Shown here: in pieces, positions 1 through 19,988 of the stretch
How positions within the stretch are numbered: the first letter of the stretch is position 1
Layout: the number at the start of each line of letters is the position of its first letter
Source of the DNA: a virus
Lineage: Duplodnaviria > Heunggongvirae > Uroviricota > Caudoviricetes
IMG/VR virus record: IMGVR_UViG_2529293217_000011
DNA: 20,446 nucleotides
Direction: 5' to 3' (one strand)
Position numbers and translations under genes: made by a program
The notes under the pieces: generated by a model
Database searches by the model: none
What the model saw: the letters and a program-made list of their open reading frames with translations, nothing else
What the model was told of the DNA's origin: nothing

Positions 1-359
1 ATTTCGCCGTCTGCCTCCGCAATGGCCACCGCCACATCCAGCACATCTTCCGCTTCACGCGTATCGTGTTTCACATCCTCAATCTCGCGTAACGCGGCAC
101 GACGACCAATTTTAAAATTGGTATCCAGCTGACCGATAATAGTTGCGCTAATCGCATTAATTTCCGAGGTAAACGCAGACAACGCAGGCTGATTACGTAA
201 GACCTGTTCGATCTTCGCTTTCTCGGATGCCTCGCATTCACCATCTGCATAGGCCACCAGGTATGCAGCGTTAATCACCGCCTGTGCCAGATCGCGTTTC
301 TCAAACTTTTTAATTTCCGCTGCCGCTCTGCGGGTTTTCTTTTTGAAGATTCCAAACAT
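1..359 (-). CDS. Hypothetical protein, 5' portion only (continues beyond window start); possibly TerB-like
   Basis: Open frame on - strand from ATG at 359 (AAGGA Shine-Dalgarno about 9 nt upstream) running off the window with no stop; N-terminus MFGIFKKKTRRAAAEIKKFEKRDLAQAVINAAYLVAYADGECE. Not in the ORF track because it is truncated by the window edge. TerB-like assignment is a weak impression only. Confidence 0.5.
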   Translation of the reverse strand, partial: MFGIFKKKTRRAAAEIKKFEKRDLAQAVINAAYLVAYADGECEASEKAKIEQVLRNQPALSAFTSEINAISATIIGQLDTNFKIGRRAALREIEDVKHDTREAEDVLDVAVAIAEADGE

Positions 360-490
360 CGTGACGTTCCTTTGGGTGGGTGAGCCAACGCCCGGGAGCG
401 ATCTGCCCACAGAGAAAGTCACACTGACCACTCCGTAAGCTCACCCCCGAAAGGCTCTGTGGTTGATATGCGCCGGGCGTGGCGCAGATA

Positions 491-515
491 CAAAAAAGGC
501 CCGCCGAAGCGAGCC
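491..515 (-). terminator. Rho-independent terminator downstream of the tRNA pair
   Basis: On the - strand a GC stem (GGCTCGC / GCGGGCC) with a UUCG loop is followed by TTTTTTG; lies immediately 3' of the tRNA at 529-605. Confidence 0.55.
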
Positions 516-528
516 TGGAAAATAAGTG

Positions 529-605
529 TGGCGCGTTGTAGTGGAGTCGAACCACTGACCGATTGCTTAGAAGGCAATTGCTCTGTCCGGCTGAGCTAAC
601 AACGC
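529..605 (-). tRNA. tRNA-Arg (anticodon TCT)
   Basis: 77-nt cloverleaf read by hand on the - strand: 7-bp acceptor stem GCGTTGT/ACAACGC, D-arm GCTC/GAGC, anticodon stem ATTGC/GCAAT with loop CTTCTAA (anticodon TCT), T-arm AGTGG-TTCGACT-CCACT, encoded CCA. Resembles the argN/argO-type tRNAs carried downstream of Q in lambdoid/Stx phages. Confidence 0.8.
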
Positions 606-705
606 AGAATACCGATAATGGACCGCCATCGGGGACCCGCCCCCGCACCAACAACCCTGTTATGGTGTCGTCTGCTCTTCCTGATAAGCTAATGGCGGTT
701 TGTGA

Positions 706-781
706 TGGTGGCCCTTGCTGGATTTGAACCAGCGACCTGGCGATTATGAGTCGCTCGCTCTCACCACTGAGCTAAAGGGCC
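706..781 (-). tRNA. tRNA with anticodon CAT, ileX/ileZ-like (tRNA-Ile2; Met cannot be excluded)
   Basis: 76-nt cloverleaf on - strand: acceptor GGCCCTT/AAGGGCC, anticodon loop CTCATAA, T-loop GGTTCAAATCC, encoded CCA. Close to the E. coli ileX sequence as I recall it. Confidence 0.8.
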
Positions 782-820
782 GGGAGCAGAATAATAACGG
801 TCCGTAATTAATTCCGCAAT

Positions 821-843
821 AAAAAACCCGCTCAATGGCGGGT
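821..843 (-). terminator. Rho-independent terminator between the Q-candidate gene and the tRNAs (tR'-like position)
   Basis: Stem ACCCGC/GCGGGT with 6-nt loop, followed on the - strand by TTTTTTATT; sits about 80 bp 3' of the gene ending at 921. Confidence 0.6.
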
Positions 844-920
844 TCTGGTAAAGTTCATGCGTTTGGTTCGCCTCGCGATACAGCTTTGCGAAGCTTACCG
901 GAATTGAAGCAGTTTTTACG

Positions 921-1475
921 TCAAAAAGCAATAACTTTTTTCTCTATACCAAAAGCCATAACCATTGGTTTGTACAAAATAAATTCTGCCACCTTTAGCC
1001 AATGCTCAATGCGTCTTTCACAGGTTCTTAAACTCCATTCCGGATGTGCATCATTCAGCAGTTCAGCCATTTTGCGCTTAGTCATCCCCCGCCCCACATA
1101 ACGCTGACTCAGAACATTGAGCAGCCCGGGATAACCTGCCAGTACTTCACCAATAACCCTGTCGATTATTAACGCCTCTGAATCGGTACAATGCACCAGC
1201 CAGCTTTTTTGCTTGCCGTTGATCATATCCCGCAAAAAAGCCTCAAGTTTAGGTTTGTCCAGACCTGCTTTTTTCATCCTCCGGAGCGCCTCGTTAATTG
1301 CCGTTTTTGTCAGCTTTTTAGAGGTCAGCAACTGGTTGAACATATTTCCCGTCTTACCGCCGCCAATATACGACCAGCGCCCCCACATACGTAGTTTCCC
1401 CTGAATCCAGACACTTTCCAGCGTGGTGAGACGAAGGTGCTCTCCGCTTTTTCCTGTGTTCGTTGGGTAAATCAT
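921..1475 (-). CDS. Hypothetical phage protein, 184 aa; positional candidate for late-gene antiterminator (Q-like)
   Basis: ORF-track frame 921..1595 trimmed to the ATG at 1475, which overlaps the upstream stop as ATGA (translational coupling). Last gene of the nin-type block before a terminator and tRNAs, the position Q occupies in lambdoid phages. No sequence motif I can tie to Q, so function is positional inference. Confidence 0.6.
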   Translation of the reverse strand: MIYPTNTGKSGEHLRLTTLESVWIQGKLRMWGRWSYIGGGKTGNMFNQLLTSKKLTKTAINEALRRMKKAGLDKPKLEAFLRDMINGKQKSWLVHCTDSEALIIDRVIGEVLAGYPGLLNVLSQRYVGRGMTKRKMAELLNDAHPEWSLRTCERRIEHWLKVAEFILYKPMVMAFGIEKKVIAF

Positions 1476-1762
1476 AAATAACCGTCCTTTCTCCAGATCT
1501 CTTGTGTGCGAAAAACACCTTCTGCATGCATCAGGCGCAATTCTTCTTTGGTGTAATCGCTGGTTTTTACTCTCCCGTCGATTAAATCGTGGCATGAGTT
1601 ACAGGCAATCGCTGCCTGCATATCGTGTGGCTTTATCGCTGTTCCGCACGTTCCCGCCAGCCTGTAATGCGCCAGCACAGAGGTTTCGGGATTGTGATTG
1701 CAGTAGCCAGGGATTCTGATCTGGCATATCTGGCCTTTAGCCGCTTTACGTAAATTCACCAT
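1472..1762 (-). CDS. YbcO-like DUF1364 protein (putative Cys-rich nin-region nuclease), 96 aa
   Basis: 96-aa ORF with cysteine cluster (CQIRIPGYC...ACNSCHDLIDGR) matching the pattern of E. coli DLP12 YbcO as I recall it; start overlaps the stop of the upstream gene (TAATG). Confidence 0.7.
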   Translation of the reverse strand: MVNLRKAAKGQICQIRIPGYCNHNPETSVLAHYRLAGTCGTAIKPHDMQAAIACNSCHDLIDGRVKTSDYTKEELRLMHAEGVFRTQEIWRKDGYL

Positions 1763-2361
1763 TACGCAAACTCCAGTAGTTGTGCGGCCACATTTTCAAC
1801 TTCCTCCTGAGAGGAGAATTTACGGAACAGAATCCAGTTCCACAGCACATTCAGTACAGATTTATAAACCTGCTGAAACTCGACTTCGTCCATATTCGCA
1901 AAAGCGATGGATTTTGCCCGACGCCCACGGCTACCGTCCGGATAAATATGCTCGGTGTAAAATCCGGCCTGAATGGTTACCCACTCGCGGAAAGCCTCAA
2001 ACGACTTTAGCAACGCCGTATCCCGGGTTCTACGAGTCGCAACGGTGTTAAGGTATTGCTCTGCGGCATCACTCAGGGCTGGCGTGTGTTCCCGACCAAC
2101 TGATTCGCACAGGTAATCAACGAAACCAGACAGCAGTTCTCGTTCGCGAGGCGTGATCGCCCCACCGACCGGAGTCCAGTAATCGAATCCCAGTTGCAGG
2201 AGTTTGAAAAAACGCTTGTGGAATGCGTAGTTACGCACACGCTTAAAATCTGCGTGTATCCACTCACCTATTTTGATTTGATGCAGAAAATCGCAACTCT
2301 CCGGCGTCGCCGGGAGAAGTAAACCAGAAGAAGTTTGTTTGACCAGTTGTATATGCGCCAT
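1762..2361 (-). CDS. Nin-region phage protein, DUF1367-like, 199 aa
   Basis: Complete 199-aa ORF directly upstream of and coupled to the YbcO-like gene; the family name is an impression from context, not a search result. Confidence 0.6.
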   Translation of the reverse strand: MAHIQLVKQTSSGLLLPATPESCDFLHQIKIGEWIHADFKRVRNYAFHKRFFKLLQLGFDYWTPVGGAITPRERELLSGFVDYLCESVGREHTPALSDAAEQYLNTVATRRTRDTALLKSFEAFREWVTIQAGFYTEHIYPDGSRGRRAKSIAFANMDEVEFQQVYKSVLNVLWNWILFRKFSSQEEVENVAAQLLEFA

Positions 2362-2780
2362 TTCTCAATCTCTCGATGGCGCAGTGCAGCAGATGCCAGT
2401 TGTTCAAGCTAGCACGCAAATTGTAAACCAGAATGCCAGGAAAAAACAAAACCCGCCGAAGCTGGTTGTGTGCGGTTGCGTTGAAGTCTCCTAGCCAAAG
2501 AGTAGCGGTGACCACTCCCCGCCGATAATCTTAGTTGTTTAATTTCGTAAGCTAACTAGGCTAAAAGCTCTCTGTTGTCTGCCTGTTGTACAATTAACAA
2601 AATGAACAACGAACTAGATATACCAACGCCAGAATGGTGCAACAAATCCCAAACAACACAGCAATGCAACAATAACATATGTTATTTTCCTCTCACGGGA
2701 TTCAGTCCTGAATTCTCATAAAGCTAATCTTTTTTTAAAAACATACTGTTAGATCACATGCACTTTCTTTCTTAACATCG

Positions 2781-2808
2781 TTGACTTCGCATGCGAAGCG
2801 TTTAAAAT
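2781..2808 (+). promoter_or_regulatory. Sigma70-type promoter for the GHKL ATPase operon with an embedded 14-bp perfect palindrome
   Basis: TTGACT (2781-2786), 16-bp spacer, TAAAAT (2803-2808), about 50 bp upstream of the ATG at 2861; the spacer contains the perfect palindrome CTTCGCATGCGAAG (2785-2798). Confidence 0.5.
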
Positions 2809-2860
2809 CAACAATTTGCACTTAAGGTATTTATTTTCCCAAACACATAGAGAGTAAATT

Positions 2861-4252
2861 ATGACTGAGAACACGACTCCAACAGCAGACTTTAGTCCTA
2901 GTAAAAGATTTTTTGTAAGTATGCTAACTCGAGATATCGACTTAAACGATGCCATACTTGATCTGCTTGATAACTGCGTCGATGGGGCTTTACGTACAAT
3001 AAAAGACACAAAAAAAACTTCAAAACCATATGAAGGATTTTATGCGAAACTTACGATTAATAAAGATGTCTTTATTATAGAAGACAATTGCGGAGGTATC
3101 CCTAAAAGCTTCCGAGAATATGCTTTTAAAATGGGACGACCCCATCAAAAAGAAGAAGAAAATGAAGGCACCGTTGGCGTCTATGGTATTGGTATGAAAA
3201 GAGCCATTTTTAAAATGGGTAGAGATTGCTCAATACAATCGAATAATCCCGATGGCGCATTCACTGTAGATATAACACCTGATTGGATCGATGGTGATGG
3301 TTGGAAAATACCGATGCACGAGAGTGACTATGATAACAAAAATCCAACAGGCACAACTATAGAGATAAAAAAACTCCATTCTAATGTGGCACAAAAATTT
3401 AATGAGAGCACATATCTTACTGATCTCTTTTTACAGATAAAACACTCATTGTCATTTATTATTCAAAAAGGATTTAAAATAGAATTAAATGGAGTTGTTG
3501 TTGAACATAATCCGATTAACATCATAACTGATCATTCTAAAATAGAACCATACATATATAAAGCTAAAATAGACGATGTTGATATCGATTTAGTTGTTGG
3601 CTTCTATAAAAATTTAGAAGATGACAATGATGATGTTTTAGAAAAAAGGAGTTCTGATGATGCTGGATGGACTGTCATTTGCAATGACCGCGTTGTTCTA
3701 TATTGTGATAAGACACATCTCACAGGTTGGGGCTTTGCTAATGTACCAAGGTTTCATACCCAATTTATAGCAATTTCTGGGGTTGTTCGCTTTACCAGTA
3801 AAAACCCAGAAAAATTACCAATAACAACAACGAAACGAGGTGTCGATCTTAGTTCTACATTGTACAATGATGTACGAAATAAAATGATTGAAGGGATGAT
3901 GCATTTTATTCGATTCACCAATCAGTGGAAAGGTGAGCATCTTGAAGAAGGGAAAAAATTACTTAAGTCAGCTCAGTCACATGAAGCTCAATCTTTATTT
4001 GAAATTACCCCACAATCAACTCCAGAAGATAAAAAAAATAACTGGTCCAACCCTAATAGAAACAAAAATGAGTGGCGATATACACCTAAGCTGCCTACCC
4101 CAGTAAAAAAAAGCTCTACTGTACGAATAATCTTCACCAGAGAGAAAGAAGATGTTAAAATTTTATCTAAATATTTCTTTGGACATGAAGATGCTAGCGC
4201 TTCTGATGTGGGGATGCAATGCTTTGATACGGTGATTGAAGAGGTGAAGTGA
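2861..4252 (+). CDS. GHKL-superfamily (Bergerat-fold) ATPase, MORC/MutL-like N-terminal domain, 463 aa
   Basis: N-terminal motifs read directly from the translation: motif I LDLLDNCVDGA (cf. MutL ELVENSLDA), motif II IEDNCGGIP (DNGxGI), motif III GVYGIGMKRAIF, motif IV NPTGTTIEI. About 290 C-terminal residues with no motif I recognise. Low-GC coding sequence. Confidence 0.8.
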   Translation: MTENTTPTADFSPSKRFFVSMLTRDIDLNDAILDLLDNCVDGALRTIKDTKKTSKPYEGFYAKLTINKDVFIIEDNCGGIPKSFREYAFKMGRPHQKEEENEGTVGVYGIGMKRAIFKMGRDCSIQSNNPDGAFTVDITPDWIDGDGWKIPMHESDYDNKNPTGTTIEIKKLHSNVAQKFNESTYLTDLFLQIKHSLSFIIQKGFKIELNGVVVEHNPINIITDHSKIEPYIYKAKIDDVDIDLVVGFYKNLEDDNDDVLEKRSSDDAGWTVICNDRVVLYCDKTHLTGWGFANVPRFHTQFIAISGVVRFTSKNPEKLPITTTKRGVDLSSTLYNDVRNKMIEGMMHFIRFTNQWKGEHLEEGKKLLKSAQSHEAQSLFEITPQSTPEDKKNNWSNPNRNKNEWRYTPKLPTPVKKSSTVRIIFTREKEDVKILSKYFFGHEDASASDVGMQCFDTVIEEVK

Positions 4253-5241
4253 TGTCTGGACAATACATTCCCTATCACTTAAGGCATAATAAGTCTATTG
4301 ATAGAGAGATTTTTCTCGAAAGCCTAAACCTCTTAAGCAAAAGACTAAATATTCAAGAATATACATATATAGGTTTTGGTGGTCCGATGCTTGAAGATTT
4401 TAGAATCATGCATAATCGTATCGCTCTTTCTGATATGATTTCTCTCGAAGAACAAGAGTCTACTCACATCAGACAAAAATATAATTTGCCTTATAATTGT
4501 ATTGATTGTAAGCTAATATCAGCTCATGACTTTATTCTTGATTATAGTTTTTCTAAACCATCAATAACATGGTTAGACTATGCCTCCCCGAAAAAAATAC
4601 AAACGGATCTAGATGATATACACTTACTAAGTACTAAAGTAAGCTCTTTTGATATTTTGAAGGTCACCTTCCCCATAAATCCTAGTTCTTATTACCAACG
4701 TAGAGTTGGAGAAAGTTTAGATATTTTTAAAGAAGCTTTTATTAATTCATTAAAATCATTGCTTGGGAAAAAGTATCTTGATTTTAATCTTCAGATATCA
4801 AATGCAGATCTTTCAGATCGTAAGATTAAAGCTCTTTTAATACGAATTATTACAAACGCTTTTAGATCAGCAATAGAACGTGGTCTTTCAGGACGTAAGG
4901 ATAAGATTCAGTATTACCCATTATCCTTAAATCAATATAATGATGGCAGTCATACCATGTTGACAATATCAGGTTTTTTCTCCTCAGAACAAGAATATAT
5001 AGAGTTATCTAAGGCATGCGACCTTTCTAACTGGCAATTTTATTCAACAAATTGGGAAGACGTGCAAGAAATAGCAATACCAACACTAACAATTAAAGAA
5101 AAGATAAATTTAGATAGTAAACTGCCTGATAAAGAAGCATATCAGGCAGCCGCTGAAGAGTTCTCTTTAAACGAAAATGAACGGGATAACTATTATAAAT
5201 ACTATAGGTTATACCCTAACTTCCAAAGAATTATGGTTTAA
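4252..5241 (+). CDS. Hypothetical protein, about 330 aa, translationally coupled partner of the GHKL ATPase
   Basis: ATG at 4252 overlaps the TGA stop of the ATPase gene (TGATG); the ORF track starts it at GTG 4249. AT-rich like its neighbour. No catalytic motif (PD-(D/E)xK, HNH, PLD) could be assigned by eye. Confidence 0.7.
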   Translation: MSGQYIPYHLRHNKSIDREIFLESLNLLSKRLNIQEYTYIGFGGPMLEDFRIMHNRIALSDMISLEEQESTHIRQKYNLPYNCIDCKLISAHDFILDYSFSKPSITWLDYASPKKIQTDLDDIHLLSTKVSSFDILKVTFPINPSSYYQRRVGESLDIFKEAFINSLKSLLGKKYLDFNLQISNADLSDRKIKALLIRIITNAFRSAIERGLSGRKDKIQYYPLSLNQYNDGSHTMLTISGFFSSEQEYIELSKACDLSNWQFYSTNWEDVQEIAIPTLTIKEKINLDSKLPDKEAYQAAAEEFSLNENERDNYYKYYRLYPNFQRIMV

Positions 5242-6360
5242 ATATTCGGGCTGTACTCTTTTATTTAATAAATTGTACAGCCCCTTTAATATATATTCAG
5301 CAACTATTGGTGACACGCTATTTCCTATTTGTCTGAAACTATGCCATTTAGTTACATGAAAGCGAAACCAATCAGGGAAGCCTTGTAATCTAGCAGCTTC
5401 TCTTGGTGTAATCACTCTTGGATGATAAGGGTGGATCGGCCTGACGGCTTGAAAGCTTCCTTTATCTCTAGCGGTTCCCGCCCTTAAAGTCGGGCAAAAA
5501 CCATTTGGATCTAATCTTGTAGATCTTGAAATTTTATCAGTTTCCCCAAAAGATAAGGAAGCATAACGCTCTTGGACGATTTTGCTATGTAATGTTCCGG
5601 TACATCCAGATATGATATTATTTTTTAACTTAGCGATCGATTCTGTATCACCAACATTCCGAGGGATCTGCCCCCATAATTTTTCATAAAATCCCCCTTT
5701 TCGATCTTTTTTAATTGTTCGCCAACTCTCAGAGTCTGATTGCCAATTGGCATCGATAATATCTGGTAATCCATACAAAGCATCTTTTACAGTAACCGGA
5801 TCAATCATTTTAGGCATAAATACTTCATCTGAAATATCAAGCTTCAATGATTTTTTTACACCGATAAAAAAATATCTAGTTCGAATAGTTGGAGCACCAT
5901 AATCAGATGCTTTTACCTTGATGGGATCAAGAATATCATAATCACCGCTAACCAAATTAAATGCTTTATTTCTAATGCCAGAATATTTCTCTTGCATAAT
6001 ACCTGGAACATTTTCTGCCAAAAAGAATAATGGCTGTAATTCTGATACTAAACGGTAGAAATGCATGTAAAGCTGATTCCTGCTATCATCAGGATTCCCC
6101 TTGCCTATTGAACTAAATCCTTGGCACGGAGGACCGCCAATAATACCATCTATGGGCATATCGTTTTTAAAAAAACCCTTAATTATTTCTGCATTTAGTA
6201 AAGAAACATCTTCTTGGACGTGCAAACTTCTTGGAAAATTAATTGCGTGAGTATTAATAGCATGTTGATCAATTTCAACTGCCATTTTAACATCAAATCC
6301 AGCACGTGCAGCACCAAGACTTAGACCTCCAACGCCAGAAAACAAATCTATTACATTCAT
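5209..6360 (-). CDS. DNA (cytosine-5)-methyltransferase, 383 aa
   Basis: Canonical C5-MTase motifs: motif I DLFSGVGG, motif IV GGPPCQGFS (catalytic PCQ), ENV, C-terminal motif X QIGNSVSP. The 3' end overlaps the convergent partner gene by 33 bp (5209-5241). Confidence 0.9.
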   Translation of the reverse strand: MNVIDLFSGVGGLSLGAARAGFDVKMAVEIDQHAINTHAINFPRSLHVQEDVSLLNAEIIKGFFKNDMPIDGIIGGPPCQGFSSIGKGNPDDSRNQLYMHFYRLVSELQPLFFLAENVPGIMQEKYSGIRNKAFNLVSGDYDILDPIKVKASDYGAPTIRTRYFFIGVKKSLKLDISDEVFMPKMIDPVTVKDALYGLPDIIDANWQSDSESWRTIKKDRKGGFYEKLWGQIPRNVGDTESIAKLKNNIISGCTGTLHSKIVQERYASLSFGETDKISRSTRLDPNGFCPTLRAGTARDKGSFQAVRPIHPYHPRVITPREAARLQGFPDWFRFHVTKWHSFRQIGNSVSPIVAEYILKGLYNLLNKRVQPEYLNHNSLEVRV

Positions 6361-6392
6361 ATAGTTGCAACGTCTCTTATTAGTTTCTATGT

Positions 6393-6401
6393 ATTATAAC
6401 A
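6393..6401 (-). promoter_or_regulatory. Extended -10 element (TGtTATAAT) upstream of the methyltransferase gene
   Basis: On the - strand TGTTATAAT lies about 33 nt upstream of the MTase ATG (6360) in an AT-rich leader. Confidence 0.4.
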
Positions 6402-6791
6402 CAACTGTTCTTGATGTTTTAACCCCATAAGATAACCTCATAAAGGCTATCCCTTGAAAATACCGGATCGCATAAATTTAATCTTTCAAAACTACTTGTC
6501 TATTAATCGAGCAATTTAAGGTTGTTTTAGTCATGTCGATACCGACATAGTTAACTAAACCCATTTCATCGTCCAACAAATGGGGGTAATACACTTTGAT
6601 TTATAGTCGGGTGGGTTTTTCTCTATCTGCCTTTGGTGTTCATGCCCAAGGCAGATAGCCTCAAGCACCCGCAGCAATTCTACTTAACTATCCTTTTCCC
6701 GCAAATCGTTTTTATCCCCAGCGGCAAATCGAATACACAACCAGCGCCACCGCCATCGCAATTCCTACCGTTGTGAATGCTTCAGGCCAGG

Positions 6792-14491: not shown

Positions 14492-17092
14492 ATGAGCACA
14501 AAACCACTCTTCCTGTTACGGAAAGCGAAAAAATCATCCGGTGAACCTGACGTCGTCCTGTGGGCAAGCAACGATTTTGAATCGACCTGTGCCACTCTGG
14601 ACTACCTGATCGTTAAGTCAGGTAAAAAACTGAGCAGCTATTTTAAAGCTGTTGCCACGAATTTTCCTGTCGTTAATGACCTGCCCGCTGAAGGTGAGAT
14701 CGATTTTACCTGGAGTGAACGCTATCAACTCAGCAAAGACTCCATGACATGGGAACTAAAACCGGGAGCAGCACCAGACAACGCTCACTATCAAGGCAAT
14801 ACCAACGTCAACGGCGAAGACATGACTGAGATTGAGGAGAATATGCTACTCCCAATTTCTGGCCAGGAACTGCCCATTCGTTGGCTTGCTCAACACGGCA
14901 GCGAAAAACCGGTAACGCACGTTTCACGCGACGGACTCCAGGCATTACACATTGCTCGGGCTGAAGAACTACCGGCTGTTACTGCCCTGGCTGTTTCCCA
15001 CAAAACCAGCCTGCTCGACCCGCTGGAAATTCGCGAACTCCACAAACTGGTTCGTGACACTGACAAAGTTTTCCCTAATCCTGGTAATTCAAACCTGGGA
15101 CTGATAACTGCTTTTTTCGAAGCATACCTGAACGCTGACTACACCGATCGAGGACTGCTGACAAAAGAGTGGATGAAGGGTAATCGTGTTTCACACATCA
15201 CTCGCACGGCTTCCGGTGCTAATGCTGGCGGCGGAAACCTCACCGATCGCGGCGAAGGTTTCGTACACGATCTGACGTCACTGGCGCGCGACGTAGCCAC
15301 TGGCGTACTGGCCCGTTCAATGGATCTGGACATCTATAACCTTCATCCGGCACACGCTAAACGCATTGAGGAAATTATCGCTGAAAATAAACCGCCCTTT
15401 TCTGTTTTCCGCGACAAATTCATCACCATGCCTGGCGGGCTGGATTATTCCCGCGCCATCGTGGTTGCGTCCGTAAAAGAAGCACCAATTGGGATCGAGG
15501 TCATCCCCGCGCACGTCACTGAATATCTGAACAAAGTACTGACTGAAACCGATCATGCCAACCCTGATCCGGAAATCGTGGATATTGCCTGCGGTCGCTC
15601 CTCTGCCCCGATGCCGCAGCGAGTAACAGAAGAAGGAAAACAGGATGATGAAGAAAAACCGCAACCATCTGGAACAACGGCAGTTGAACAGGGAGAGGCT
15701 GAAACAATGGAACCGGACGCAACTGAACATCATCAGGACACGCAGCCGCTGGATGCTCAGTCACAGGTAAATTCTGTTGATGCGAAATATCAGGAACTGC
15801 GGGCAGAACTCCATGAAGCCCGGAAAAACATTCCATCAAAAAATCCTGTCGATGCCGATAAATTGCTTGCTGCATCACGTGGTGAATTTGTTGACGGAAT
15901 TAGCGACCCGAACGATCCGAAATGGGTAAAGGGGATCCAGACTCGCGATTGTGTGTACCAGAACCAGCCAGAAACGGAAAAAACCAGCCCGGATATGAAT
16001 CAACCTGAGCCAGTAGTGCAACAGGAACCGGAAATAGCCTGCAATGCCTGCGGCCAGACTGGCGGGGATAACTGCCCTGACTGTGGTGCGGTGATGGGCG
16101 ACGCAACATACCAGGAAACATTCGATGAAGAGAGTCAGGTTGAAGCTAAGGAAAATGATCCGGAGGAAATGGAAGGCGCTGAACATCCGCACAATGAGAA
16201 TGCTGGCAGCGATCCGCATCGCGATTGCAGTGATGAAACTGGCGAAGTCGCAGATCCCGTAATCGTAGAAGACATAGAGCCAGGTATTTATTACGGAATT
16301 TCGAATGAGAATTACCACGCGGGTCCCGGTGTCAGTAAGTCTCAGCTCGATGACATTGCTGATACTCCGGCACTGTATTTGTGGCGTAAAAATGCCCCCG
16401 TGGACACCACAAAGACAAAAACGCTCGATTTAGGAACCGCTTTCCACTGCCGGGTACTTGAGCCGGAAGAATTCAGTAACCGCTTTATCGTAGCACCTGA
16501 ATTTAACCGCCGGACAAACTCCGGAAAAGAAGAAGAGAAAGCGTTTCTGAGGGAATGCGCAAGCACAGGAAAAACGGTTATCACTGCCGAAGAAGGCCGG
16601 AAAATTGAACTCATGTATCAGAGCGTTATGGCTTTGCCGCTGGGGCAATGGCTTGTTGAAAGCGCCGGACACGCTGAATCATCAATTTACTGGGAAGATC
16701 CTGAAACAGCAATTTTGTGTCGGTGCCGTCCGGACAAAATTATCCCTGAATTTCACTGGATCATGGACGTGAAAACTACGGCGGATATTCAACGATTCAA
16801 AACCGCTTATTACGACTACCGCTATCACGTTCAGGATGCATTCTACAGTGACGGTTATGAAGCACAGTTTGGAGTGCAGCCAACTTTCGTTTTTCTGGTT
16901 GCCAGCACAACTATTGAATGCGGACGTTATCCGGTTGAAATTTTCATGATGGGCGAAGAAGCAAAACTGGCAGGTCAGCTGGAATATCACCGCAATCTGC
17001 GAACCCTGGCTGACTGCCTCAATACCGATGAATGGCCAGCTATTAAGACGTTATCACTGCCCCGCTGGGCTAAGGAATATGCAAATGACTAA
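14492..17092 (+). CDS. recE: Exodeoxyribonuclease VIII (RecE), 866 aa, apparently intact
   Basis: Full-length 866-aa ORF recognised as RecE; the C-terminal nuclease region (...[27 protein letters not shown]...) is present. Confidence 0.95.
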
Positions 17093-17894
17093 GCAACCAC
17101 CAATCGCAAAAGCCGATCTGCAAAAAACTCAGGGAAACCGTGCACCAGCAGCAATTAAAAATAACGACGTGATTAGTTTTATTAACCAGCCATCAATGAA
17201 AGAGCAACTGGCAGCAGCTCTTCCACGCCATATGACGGCTGAACGTATGATCCGTATCGCCACCACAGAAATTCGTAAAGTTCCGGCGTTAGGAAACTGT
17301 GACACTATGAGTTTTGTCAGTGCAATCGTACAGTGTTCACAGCTCGGACTTGAGCCCGGTAGCGCCCTCGGTCATGCATATTTACTGCCTTTTGGTAATA
17401 AAAACGAAAAGAGCGGTAAAAAAAACGTTCAGCTAATCATTGGCTATCGAGGCATGATTGATCTGGCTCGCCGTTCAGGTCAAATCGCCAGCTTGTCAGC
17501 CCGTGTTGTCCGTGAAGGTGACGAGTTTAATTTCGAATTTGGCCTTGATGAAAAGTTAATACACCGCCCAGGAGAAAACGAAGATGCCCCTGTTACCCAC
17601 GTCTATGCTGTCGCAAGACTGAAAGACGGAGGTACTCAGTTTGAAGTTATGACGCGCAAACAGATTGAGCTGGTGCGCAGCCAGAGTAAAGCTGGTAATA
17701 ACGGGCCGTGGGTAACTCACTGGGAAGAAATGGCAAAGAAAACGGCTATTCGTCGCCTGTTCAAATATCTGCCCGTATCAATTGAGATCCAGCGTGCAGT
17801 ATCAATGGATGAAAAGGAACCACTGACAATCGATCCTGCAGATTCCTCTGTATTAACCGGGGAATACAGTGTAATCGATAATTCAGAGGAATAA
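17085..17894 (+). CDS. recT: Single-strand annealing recombinase RecT, 269 aa
   Basis: [50 protein letters not shown]...; the start overlaps the recE 3' end by 8 nt; the ORF-track start at 17028 is an upstream in-frame extension. Confidence 0.95.
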
Positions 17895-17949
17895 TTCAGC
17901 CTGGCGGTGTAATGCACCGCCAACTTGAAATATTTTTATGAGAAAAATT

Positions 17950-18099
17950 ATGAGATATGACAATGTTAAACCATGTCCATTTTGTGGTTGTCCATCAGTA
18001 ACGGTGAAAGCCATTTCAGGATATTACCGAGCGAAGTGTAACGGATGCGAATCCCGAACCGGTTATGGTGGAAGTGAAAAAGAAGCACTCGAACGATGA
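17950..18099 (+). pseudogene. ralR: ralR (lar, restriction alleviation), truncated at codon 50 by in-frame TGA; frame continues to 18144
   Basis: MRYDNVKPCPFCGCPSVTVKAISGYYRAKCNGCESRTGYGGSEKEALER then TGA (18097-18099), then in frame NKRTTGNNNGGVHV and TAA. The K-12 RalR I recall is 64 aa with TGG (Trp) at this position. Confidence 0.7.
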
Positions 18100-18136
18100 A
18101 ATAAACGAACCACTGGAAATAATAATGGAGGTGTTC

Positions 18137-18325
18137 ATGTATAAAATTACCGCCACTATTGAAAAGGAAGGTGGCACTCCTACTAACTGGACAAGATATT
18201 CAAAATCTAAACTAACGAAATCAGAATGCGAAAAAATGCTCTCAGGTAAAAAAGAAGCAGGCGTTTCCAGAGAGCAGAAAGTAAAACTGATAAATTTTAA
18301 TTGCGAGAAACTTCAGTCCTCGTGA
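18137..18325 (+). CDS. ydaC: YdaC-like protein, 62 aa as encoded (in-frame TGA, then 6 further sense codons)
   Basis: MYKITATIEKEGGTPTNWTRYSKSKLTKSECEKMLSGKKEAGVSREQKVKLINFNCEKLQSS then TGA (18323-18325), then in frame IALYSN and TAA (18344-18346). The K-12 YdaC I recall is 69 aa ending SSRIALYSN. Confidence 0.7.
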   Translation: MYKITATIEKEGGTPTNWTRYSKSKLTKSECEKMLSGKKEAGVSREQKVKLINFNCEKLQSS

Positions 18326-18424
18326 ATTGCATTGTATTCAAATTAAAACTTCATAGCTGATTATTAATAATCAACATCGGGCGTCAATTTAAGTCTAACA
18401 TTGGCGCCTGCCAGAGGTGATGCG

Positions 18425-18640
18425 ATGGCACAAGTAATCTTTAATGAAGAGTGGATGGTTGAATACGGCCTGATGCTTCGCACTGGTCTGGGGGCCAGAC
18501 AAATTGAAGCATACCGCCAGAACTGTTGGGTGGAAGGCTTCCACTTCAAACGAGTATCTCCTTTAGGGAAGCCAGACAGTAAGCGAGGGATTATCTGGTA
18601 TAACTATCCAAAGATAAATCAGTTTATCAAAGACTCATGA
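18425..18640 (+). CDS. xisR: Excisionase XisR (YdaQ), 71 aa
   Basis: ORF-track frame trimmed to [44 protein letters not shown]...; lies immediately upstream of the integrase. Confidence 0.85.
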
Positions 18641-18641
18641 T

Positions 18642-19877
18642 ATGTCTAAATTACCAACAGGTGTCGAGATTCGAGGTAAATACATTCGCATCTGGTTCAT
18701 GTTTCGAGGAAAACGATGTCGGGAAACATTGAAAGGCTGGGAGGTTACTAACAGTAACATTAAAAAAGCCGGGAATTTAAGAGCGTTGATAGTTCATGAA
18801 ATCAATTCCGGTGAGTTTGAGTATTTAAGACGTTTTCCCCAGTCCAGCACTGGGGCAAAAATGGTGACAACGAGGGTCATAAAAACGTTCGGGGAGCTTT
18901 GTGATATCTGGACAAAAATTAAAGAAACAGAGTTAACAACAAACACAATGAAGAAAACGAAATCACAATTAAAAACACTCAGGATAATAATTTGTGAGAG
19001 TACTCCGATATCGCATATTCGTTATAGCGATATCTTAAACTACCGGAATGAACTGCTGCATGGAGAAACGCTTTACCTGGATAATCCAAGATCCAACAAA
19101 AAAGGAAGAACCGTGCGCACAGTTGATAACTATATCGCCCTGCTCTGTTCGTTGTTACGTTTTGCGTATCAGTCGGGATTTATATCAACCAAACCATTTG
19201 AAGGAGTAAAGAAATTACAGAGAAACAGAATAAAGCCTGACCCGTTATCTAAAACAGAATTCAATGCATTAATGGAAAGTGAAAAAGGACAGAGCCAGAA
19301 CTTGTGGAAATTTGCCGTATACTCCGGGCTTCGTCACGGGGAACTGGCTGCTCTGGCGTGGGAGGATGTGGATTTCGAGAAGGGAGTTGTGAATGTCAGA
19401 AGAAACCTGACGATACTGGATATGTTCGGTCCCCCAAAAACAAATGCGGGGATCCGGACGGTAACACTACTGCAGCCTGCTCTTGAAGCACTGAAGGAGC
19501 AATACAAACTGACCGGGCATCATCGCAAAAGCGAAATCACCTTTTATCATCGGGAGTACGGCAGAACCGAAAAGCAAAAACTGCATTTTGTTTTCATGCC
19601 CAGGGTGTGTAACGGAAAACAAAAACCTTATTACTCGGTAAGCAGTTTGGGGGCAAGGTGGAATGCAGCAGTAAAACGTGCTGGTATTCGCCGCCGTAAT
19701 CCGTACCATACGCGGCATACTTTTGCCTGCTGGCTGTTGACGGCAGGAGCGAACCCGGCATTTATAGCCAGCCAAATGGGGCATGAAACTGCGCAGATGG
19801 TGTATGAAATTTACGGTATGTGGATTGATGACATGAACGACGAACAGGTAGCCATGTTGAATGCGCGGTTATCATAG
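18642..19877 (+). CDS. intR: Rac-type tyrosine integrase IntR, 411 aa
   Basis: Full 411-aa ORF (MSKLPTGVEIRGKYIRIWFMFRGKRCRETLKGW...) with C-terminal catalytic region (...HTRHTFACWLLTAGANPAFIASQMGHETAQMVYEIY). Confidence 0.95.
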   Translation: MSKLPTGVEIRGKYIRIWFMFRGKRCRETLKGWEVTNSNIKKAGNLRALIVHEINSGEFEYLRRFPQSSTGAKMVTTRVIKTFGELCDIWTKIKETELTTNTMKKTKSQLKTLRIIICESTPISHIRYSDILNYRNELLHGETLYLDNPRSNKKGRTVRTVDNYIALLCSLLRFAYQSGFISTKPFEGVKKLQRNRIKPDPLSKTEFNALMESEKGQSQNLWKFAVYSGLRHGELAALAWEDVDFEKGVVNVRRNLTILDMFGPPKTNAGIRTVTLLQPALEALKEQYKLTGHHRKSEITFYHREYGRTEKQKLHFVFMPRVCNGKQKPYYSVSSLGARWNAAVKRAGIRRRNPYHTRHTFACWLLTAGANPAFIASQMGHETAQMVYEIYGMWIDDMNDEQVAMLNARLS

Positions 19878-19884
19878 TTGCAAA

Positions 19885-19908
19885 GTTTGCCCCCAATTTG
19901 CCCCATTT
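19885..19908. repeat. Two tandem TTTGCCCC(C/A) units just 3' of intR; putative integrase arm-type sites
   Basis: GTTTGCCCCCAA and TTTGCCCCATTT read directly; same motif as the larger cluster at 20082-20131. Confidence 0.45.
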
Positions 19909-19928
19909 AGTACCAGAGAACTGAAATA

Positions 19929-19988
19929 ATGCAAGAAAATCAACAAATTACAAAGAAAGAACAATACAACCTGAACAAGTCAGAGTAA
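19929..19988 (+). pseudogene. ttcA-like 5' fragment (19 codons) at the prophage junction
   Basis: ATG CAA GAA AAT CAA CAA ATT ACA AAG AAA GAA CAA TAC AAC CTG AAC AAG (MQENQQITKKEQYNLNK) matches the TtcA N-terminus as I recall it, then diverges (SE-stop). Rac is known to integrate in ttcA. Confidence 0.4.

Follow-up and report, generated by a model that had tools for sequence, protein, structure and literature searches.

A predicted sigma-70 promoter with a lineage-specific, probably incidental palindrome upstream of a methylase-linked ATPase operon in prophage Sp10

Described systems and the three-gene module

Prophage morons, such as bor and lom of lambda and those of HK97 and HK022, are inserted cassettes that carry their own sigma-70 promoter, are oriented independently of the phage and are transcribed in the lysogen. 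The locus analysed here appears alike in each of these respects, and also in that its cassette occurs in more than one prophage backbone as well as outside prophages. It differs in its cargo: instead of a single gene with a terminator, it holds three methylase-linked genes with two predicted promoters that face each other.

A second basis for comparison is provided by the C-box operators of restriction-modification (R-M) systems, e.g., those of C.PvuII, C.AhdI and C.Esp1396I. These are dyads in the core promoter that serves the genes other than the methylase, and the palindrome described below occupies the corresponding place in an R-M-like module. A C-box is, however, a double box of roughly 35 bp built on GACT-N3-AGTC, and such tandem boxes are absent here: the locus has one 14-bp palindrome, which the relatives do not conserve, and no C gene lies in or next to the cassette. 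Specifically, a small helix-turn-helix (HTH) C gene located 5' of a restriction-type gene, or overlapping it, was found neither in the cassette, as judged from its open reading frames and from Pfam, nor as a conserved feature of the relatives.

In a third group the C5 methyltransferase of the R-M module itself acts as the repressor (M.SsoII, M.Ecl18kI, M.EcoRII and M.MspI), and here too the likeness consists of a C5 methyltransferase in an R-M-type module combined with a palindrome in the promoter region. The methylases of this group carry an N-terminal HTH extension, and they bind a 15-bp repeat between divergent genes, whereas the genes of the present module are convergent and no related repeat is found upstream of its methylase gene. 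The methylase domain PF00145 spans residues 1-361 of the 383 residues of the module's methylase, ECs1953, which aligns from residue 1 with PDB 3g7u. Because the domain starts at residue 1, there is no N-terminal HTH extension of the SsoII/EcoRII type. Control of the controller-protein type, to which an earlier sequence-only reading of this DNA had likened the locus, is therefore not what we find: the dyad is unlike a C-box, and the methylase has no N-terminal DNA-binding extension.

The gene content itself recalls prokaryotic GHKL ATPases of the MORC/paraMORC type, which Iyer, Abhiman and Aravind reportedly linked to DNA methylases in 2008. The likeness lies in an ATPase with GHKL and transducer domains, as in Hsp90, MORC and SMCHD1, that is tightly linked to a DNA methyltransferase. 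The difference lies in the partner, which is here a protein of the SAM-methyltransferase fold (PF20553), with no recognisable nuclease or helicase.

The window, by which we mean the whole 20,446-nt stretch of DNA analysed, is prophage Sp10 of E. coli O157:H7 Sakai, i.e., CP-933R of EDL933, with 100% identity over positions 1-19978. The first gene of the module (ECs1955/Z2386), a 463-amino-acid open reading frame at 2861-4252 on the + strand, encodes a GHKL ATPase (HATPase_c_3 in Pfam) with an Hsp90/MORC-like transducer domain, and its structure model (pLDDT 83) matches Hsp90, TRAP1, MORC2/3 and SMCHD1 with E about 1e-13. It is followed at 4252-5241 (+) by ECs1954/Z2387, a Methyltransf_35 protein with a class I SAM-methyltransferase fold; the start at 4252 is that of RefSeq, and the frame is also open from a GTG at 4249. 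The model of this protein (pLDDT 88.8) matches Trm1, BamL and other SAM-methyltransferases with TM about 0.35-0.43, and no nuclease domain is evident in the models of either protein. The third gene, at 5209-6360 on the - strand (ECs1953/Z2389), encodes the C5 DNA cytosine methyltransferase of PDB 3g7u. It is convergent with the other two, and the coding regions overlap by 33 bp at their 3' ends (5209-5241). A strong promoter-like site of its own, TTAAAA-18-TATAAT with an extended -10 TG, lies at 6393-6422 (-), and the module therefore has two convergent promoters, one upstream of the ATPase operon and the other, this promoter-like site, for the methylase. An inverted repeat, GGGCTGTAC-N18-GTACAGCCC, was also observed at 5248-5283, where it begins 7 nt past the Methyltransf_35 stop codon and lies inside the 3' coding end of the methylase gene; it may be a terminator or a site that controls convergent transcription.

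In nearly all of the approximately 150 loci checked, which come from many phyla, the Methyltransf_35 gene comes after that of the ATPase, and the C5 methylase gene adjoins the pair. The methylase gene lies upstream and in the same direction in most of the distant loci, and convergent and downstream in two enterobacterial prophage clades. Scans of genome contigs and metagenomes gave mostly distant relatives (approximately 45% identity), which were used for the linkage and not for the promoter. The linkage bears out the R-M-like context that had been proposed from the window alone. Neither the ATPase nor the Methyltransf_35 protein has a match in PADLOC v2, and their PHROG families are without assigned function; in the papers searched nothing was found on the module or on the specificity of its methylase, and Z2389 and CP-933R appear only in gene lists. 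The module is not a described system, the comparison with R-M systems is reasonable, and we regard it as a candidate for an uncharacterised R-M-like or DNA-modification system in Sp10/CP-933R. It is present in approximately 170 complete E. coli genomes (O157:H7, O111 and others), in P2-like as well as lambdoid prophages and in many bacterial phyla, it is more interesting than the palindrome, and it deserves separate attention.

The promoter region of the ATPase operon

Within the prophage the module is flanked by minus-strand phage genes, with DUF1367, YbcO and a Q-like antiterminator on one side and the replication genes on the other. Homology to other lambdoid prophages ends at about window position 2484. 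When window 2362-2860 was used as the query, more than 3000 E. coli genomes matched only query positions 25-123, i.e., window 2386-2484, which is the last stretch common to other lambdoid prophages and places the left cassette junction between there and the promoter. Because the homology stops at this point, the promoter belongs to the inserted cassette. That cassette is not tied to one location: the same three genes are found in other prophage backbones and at chromosomal sites outside prophages. The ATPase operon runs opposite to the early-right transcription of the phage and converges on the C5 methyltransferase gene, and since its orientation opposes both early-right transcription and its neighbours, it needs a promoter of its own. 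Among the other features of the prophage are tRNA genes at 532-605 (-) and 709-781 (-), annotated as Arg and Ile in RefSeq and located downstream of the Q-like antiterminator gene, and the RalA antitoxin sRNA of a Rac-type ralR/ralA pair at 18143-18321 (-).

The 345-bp gap 5' of the ATPase gene contains one promoter-like site on the + strand, at 2781-2808, and on inspection this region reads gTTGACTTCGCATGCGAAGCGTTTAAAATc. The -35 hexamer TTGACT (2781-2786, +) matches TTGACA at 5/6 positions, the -10 hexamer TAAAAT (2803-2808, +), located 52 nt 5' of the ATPase ATG, likewise scores 5/6, and the two are separated by a 16-bp spacer, which gives 10/12 matches in a consensus scan. From sigma-70 geometry the start of transcription is predicted at 2814-2816 (+), 6-8 nt past the -10. 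A Shine-Dalgarno-like AGAGAG follows at 2849-2854 (+), 6 nt before the ATG, and the block CACATAG(A/C)GAGA is kept in the nearest relatives.

We compared 12 distinct promoter variants; the ATPases of the relatives are 59-90% identical to that of the window, and the upstream regions otherwise barely align. While the flanks diverge, TTGAC, the 16-bp spacer and TAnnAT are retained in every one of the 12 variants, and in the ten variants printed in full the ATG follows at a distance of about 50 nt. Over the 12 variants the -35 has a mean majority fraction of 0.93 and the -10 one of 0.85. A near-consensus promoter had been proposed earlier from the hexamers in the window, and with hexamers and spacing kept in such diverged variants, the reading of 2781-2808 as a genuine sigma-70 promoter is now well supported by sequence comparison.

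In a microarray study of Sakai, ECs1955 and ECs1954 changed by log2 -3.22 and log2 -2.61 respectively at the transition to stationary phase, i.e., a 6-9-fold drop for the two genes at entry to stationary phase (PMC2241611). Since they fall together, the two genes appear to be co-transcribed and active in growing lysogens. The earlier suggestion that the operon is held off is contradicted for growing lysogens by the same data, in which both genes are transcribed in exponential phase (PMC2241611). The methylase gene Z2389 is negatively RpoS-dependent, by -9-fold, in stationary-phase EDL933 (PMC2907692), and the module may be under growth-phase control.

By RNA-seq of EDL933 under 11 conditions, Z2386, Z2387 and Z2389 are on a list of 'silent genes' (PMC4048457, Table S3). 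However, nearly every gene from Z2385 to Z2415 (about window 2264-19978) has zero reads in all conditions in that study, including cro, the repressor and integrase (PMC4048457). The stock used has probably lost this part of CP-933R, rather than the genes being silent, and for that reason we set the silent status of the module genes aside.

The palindrome in the window and across relatives

The palindrome, CTTCGCATGCGAAG, is a perfect 7+7 dyad of 14 bp at 2785-2798, with GCATGC at its centre. Its existence, first noted in the sequence-only reading, is confirmed. It had been placed inside the spacer, and it does cover spacer positions 1-12 of 16, but it also overlaps the final 2 nt of the -35 TTGACT. 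A dyad in this position lies where a bound dimer would block RNA polymerase.

A 14-bp palindrome as such is nothing unusual within the window: there are 4 perfect palindromes of at least 14 bp, where first-order Markov simulations give an expectation of 1.56 ± 1.25, and at least one occurs in 78% of the simulated windows. A perfect 7+7 dyad within the promoter core is uncommon, with p about 0.006-0.017 relative to shuffles of the same bases. The consensus scan finds 36 promoter-like sites in the window and 35.5 in shuffles, and the probability that a palindrome lies entirely within one of the 36 is roughly 0.04-0.10, estimated by hand from the expected or the observed number of palindromes. 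The placement of the palindrome in the promoter is mildly unusual and not compelling. Two of the window's four large palindromes are in the 345-bp intergenic region, which has 35% GC; the second of them is AATAACATATGTTATT, 16 bp, at 2671-2686. The same region holds a third dyad, GGATTCAG-TC-CTGAATTC, with 7/8 pairs at 2699-2716, and the stretch with the dyads at 2671-2686 and 2699-2716 does not align to the upstream regions of the relatives.

The palindrome is the same in 173 E. coli genomes and 11 IMG/VR contigs with the cassette, which therefore add nothing on its conservation. The diverged variants are more informative. In the window the -35 TTGACT is followed by the spacer TCGCATGCGAAGCGTT. 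In the closest relative, L157, the -35 is the same and the spacer is TCGCATAAGAAGCGCT, and at the position of the palindrome this relative reads CTTCGCATAAGAAG. The -35 is also TTGACT in L158 (spacer TCCCTAGAGAAGCGAT), L083 (TCACATTGCAAGTGCA), L088 (TCATCCTTCAAGTGCA) and L090 (TAGCTGGTGAAGCATT), and it is TTGACA in L082 (TCCCTATCGAAGCGCT), L087 (ATCAATCAGAAGTGCT), L091 (TACTTTTATCAATATC) and L085 (TGTATTTTGCAATCAT). Perfect symmetry is found only in the E. coli allele and in none of the diverged relatives. Pairing about the same centre is 7/7 in the window, 5/7 in L157 and 6/7 in L158, the latter two read by hand from the alignment, and the seven scored variants form 2-5 of the 9 pairs tested at the window's centre, corresponding to 1-4 of the 7 pairs of the palindrome. 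Spacer positions 3-8, i.e., the inner 6 bp of the palindrome, have a majority fraction of 0.46 over the 12 variants, which is the lowest of the whole promoter.

In 7/8 variants the best dyad is no better than in shuffles. The 12 variants together show no enrichment of inverted repeats (Fisher p 0.30 for gaps of at most 4 and 0.08 for gaps of at most 12), and there is none when the window is left out (Fisher p 0.72 and 0.25 for the same gaps). Symmetry is upheld in the orthologous promoters neither by conservation nor by compensatory change, with the outer arms partly kept: CTTC/GAAG is retained in the window, L157 and L158, and CTT/AAG in L083, L088 and L090. In L158 there is a two-sided swap from A:T to T:A at the palindrome centre, and L163 and L165 have unrelated 7-bp dyads of their own in the promoter. 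Conservation of the right arm declines with phylogenetic distance, as does that of neighbouring non-symmetric positions, and conservation of the left arm needs no operator, because this arm is mostly the -35 hexamer. Perfection confined to the E. coli allele, a core that is the least conserved part and the lack of inverted-repeat enrichment all count against the operator that the palindrome had first been taken for.

Explanations for the palindrome

The explanation we favour, and consider probable, is that this is a sigma-70 moron promoter of the ordinary kind, whose palindrome is lineage-specific and incidental. The promoter at 2781-2808 would drive a two-gene operon, made up of the GHKL/MORC-like ATPase and the methyltransferase-fold protein, and the three-gene methylase-linked module to which this operon belongs sits as a moron insertion within the early-right region of Sp10/CP-933R. 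The spacer would be free to drift because its sequence is not closely read by RNA polymerase, and in the E. coli lineage it would have become symmetric by accident. Quasi-palindrome correction by template switching, a described mutational mechanism of E. coli, could have created the symmetry in a single event: two adjacent bases differ between the window and L157 (GC vs AA), and they are exactly the two that complete the symmetry, which makes such an origin possible. The likeness to the described mechanism is this two-base difference that perfects the repeat; what differs is that here template switching would be a presumed origin, and the available outgroups do not polarise the change. A neutral origin of the palindrome is the most likely. 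Judging from gene order, any coupling to the state of the prophage would more plausibly arise from collision with early-right transcription and with the convergent transcription of the methylase gene. The palindrome itself would then be of little importance, and the promoter would be useful as a marker of the module's transcription unit.

The strongest competitor, which we nevertheless consider unlikely, is a lineage-specific operator: a dimeric protein, with its gene in the host, in another prophage or in the module, would bind the dyad, perhaps through its outer CTTC/GAAG arms, and occlude RNA polymerase. A perfect dyad over the -35 and spacer is locally uncommon (p about 0.01), and the retention of the CTTC/GAAG arms in the nearest relatives, together with the 6/7 pairs of L158 and its two-sided centre change, is the trace expected from a dimer that touches two 4-bp half-sites 6 bp apart. 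The unrelated 7-bp dyads in L163 and L165, and the fact that two of the four large palindromes are in the intergenic region, point the same way. The operons of restriction-like modules are also often tightly controlled, and in Sakai expression of the ATPase operon depends on growth phase. Against this, the symmetry is gone in most of the relatives that retain the promoter, the left arm is largely the -35 hexamer, and growing lysogens do transcribe the operon. If an operator is assumed, its working form would be CTTC-N6-GAAG, through which a dimer supplied by the host or the module would control the effector pair of a widespread C5-methylase-linked immunity module, with the E. coli allele as a tightened version; this more specific proposal is a little less likely still. 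A dyad proved to be an operator would offer a handle on how the module is kept in check.

Searches for further sites in the prophage and in viral contigs also count against an operator. Scanning the window and the remaining 31 kb of the 51-kb Sp10 with at most 3 mismatches gave no further copy of the palindrome, so the search for the same palindrome proposed earlier yields no second site in the prophage; half-sites occur at chance frequency only, and CTTC-N6-GAAG has a single occurrence in the searched sequence. In 2362-2900 there is no repeat family around the palindrome and a single CTTCGCATGCGAAG. The exact 14-mer is found in 72 of 2.9 million viral contigs, 11 of which are this cassette. 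We rejected a shared phage operator on the basis of the other 61/72, which have unrelated, mostly GC-rich flanks; the full -35/-10 promoter context is confined to the 11 cassette copies. A site for the prophage repressor was rejected likewise, as the cI/cro intergenic region (11640-11715) is unlike the palindrome.

As for the protein itself, the open reading frame list and Pfam gave no HTH regulator gene in the cassette and none consistently beside it in the relatives, which agrees with the earlier observation that the cassette lacks a regulator gene, and no regulator gene is linked in any context seen. Small regulator genes in 2485-2860 were considered and rejected: the only open reading frames there are of 20-48 amino acids, in DNA that does not align among relatives. 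The over-long 19-20-bp spacer of MerR-type promoters is not found here, the spacer being 16 bp.

A methylation-sensitive switch of the CfrBI type is improbable. The C5 methyltransferase of the module would have its site within the palindrome, e.g., CGCATGCG, and the promoter would behave differently on unmethylated, newly arrived DNA and on methylated DNA. R-M modules need timing control, the module does have a C5 methylase with its own promoter-like site, and the palindrome is a GC-rich island in AT-rich surroundings with four CpG/GpC-type cytosines per strand. The relatives speak against it: the target-recognition region can be aligned gap-free across the methylases of all variants, with its DNA-contact-like motifs conserved, so that the specificity is probably common to them, yet the -35 is the one cytosine-containing motif that the spacers have in common.

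Even less probable is a structural or RNA element, i.e., a hairpin or cruciform acting as a - strand terminator or pause site for early-right transcription, or tuning the promoter in a supercoiling-sensitive manner. On its way to DUF1367, YbcO and Q, early-right transcription has to pass through this region in the antisense direction, and the palindrome can fold into a hairpin with 5 bp in the stem and 4 nt in the loop. However, the terminator scan lists no intrinsic terminator there, neither strand has a T-run, Rfam gives no match at the palindrome, and the palindrome is not conserved in relatives. A loop-less palindrome of 14 bp is also short for cruciform extrusion. Finally, that 2781-2808 is not the operon's promoter, with transcription starting elsewhere and the hexamers being chance matches, is equally hard to sustain: promoter-like sites are indeed as many in the window as in shuffles, but amid diverged flanks the 12 variants keep TTGAC and TAnnAT, the 16 bp between them and their distance from the ATG, and the orientation of the operon demands a promoter of its own.

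Other dyads and motifs were seen in the upstream regions of the relatives. The P2-like clade has a second GCATGC motif, TTTTGCATGCATTTTGATGCAAAA, approximately 110 bp upstream of the ATPase gene, which we rejected as a counterpart of the palindrome: it lies at the conserved backbone edge, and its position is unrelated. In L107-L149, which are P2-like viral contigs, the block TTTTTTTTGCATGCATTTTGATGCAAAATCA is conserved 100-125 bp upstream of the ATPase ATG; the dyad TTTTGCAT-N8-ATGCAAAA lies within it, and the block is apparently a marker of the border of the conserved phage backbone. The same clade has variable hairpin-like dyads just 5' of the ribosome-binding site, e.g., TGCCCAA-CAC-TTGGGCA. 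LexA-box-like sequences, CTGTATATATAAACAG and CTGTATAAATAAACAG, lie approximately 270 bp upstream of the ATPase ATG in L082, L083, L084 and L157-L160, the last four of which have a divergent DinI-family gene upstream; the counterpart in the window, CTGTTGTACAATTAAC at about 2583-2598, is degenerate.
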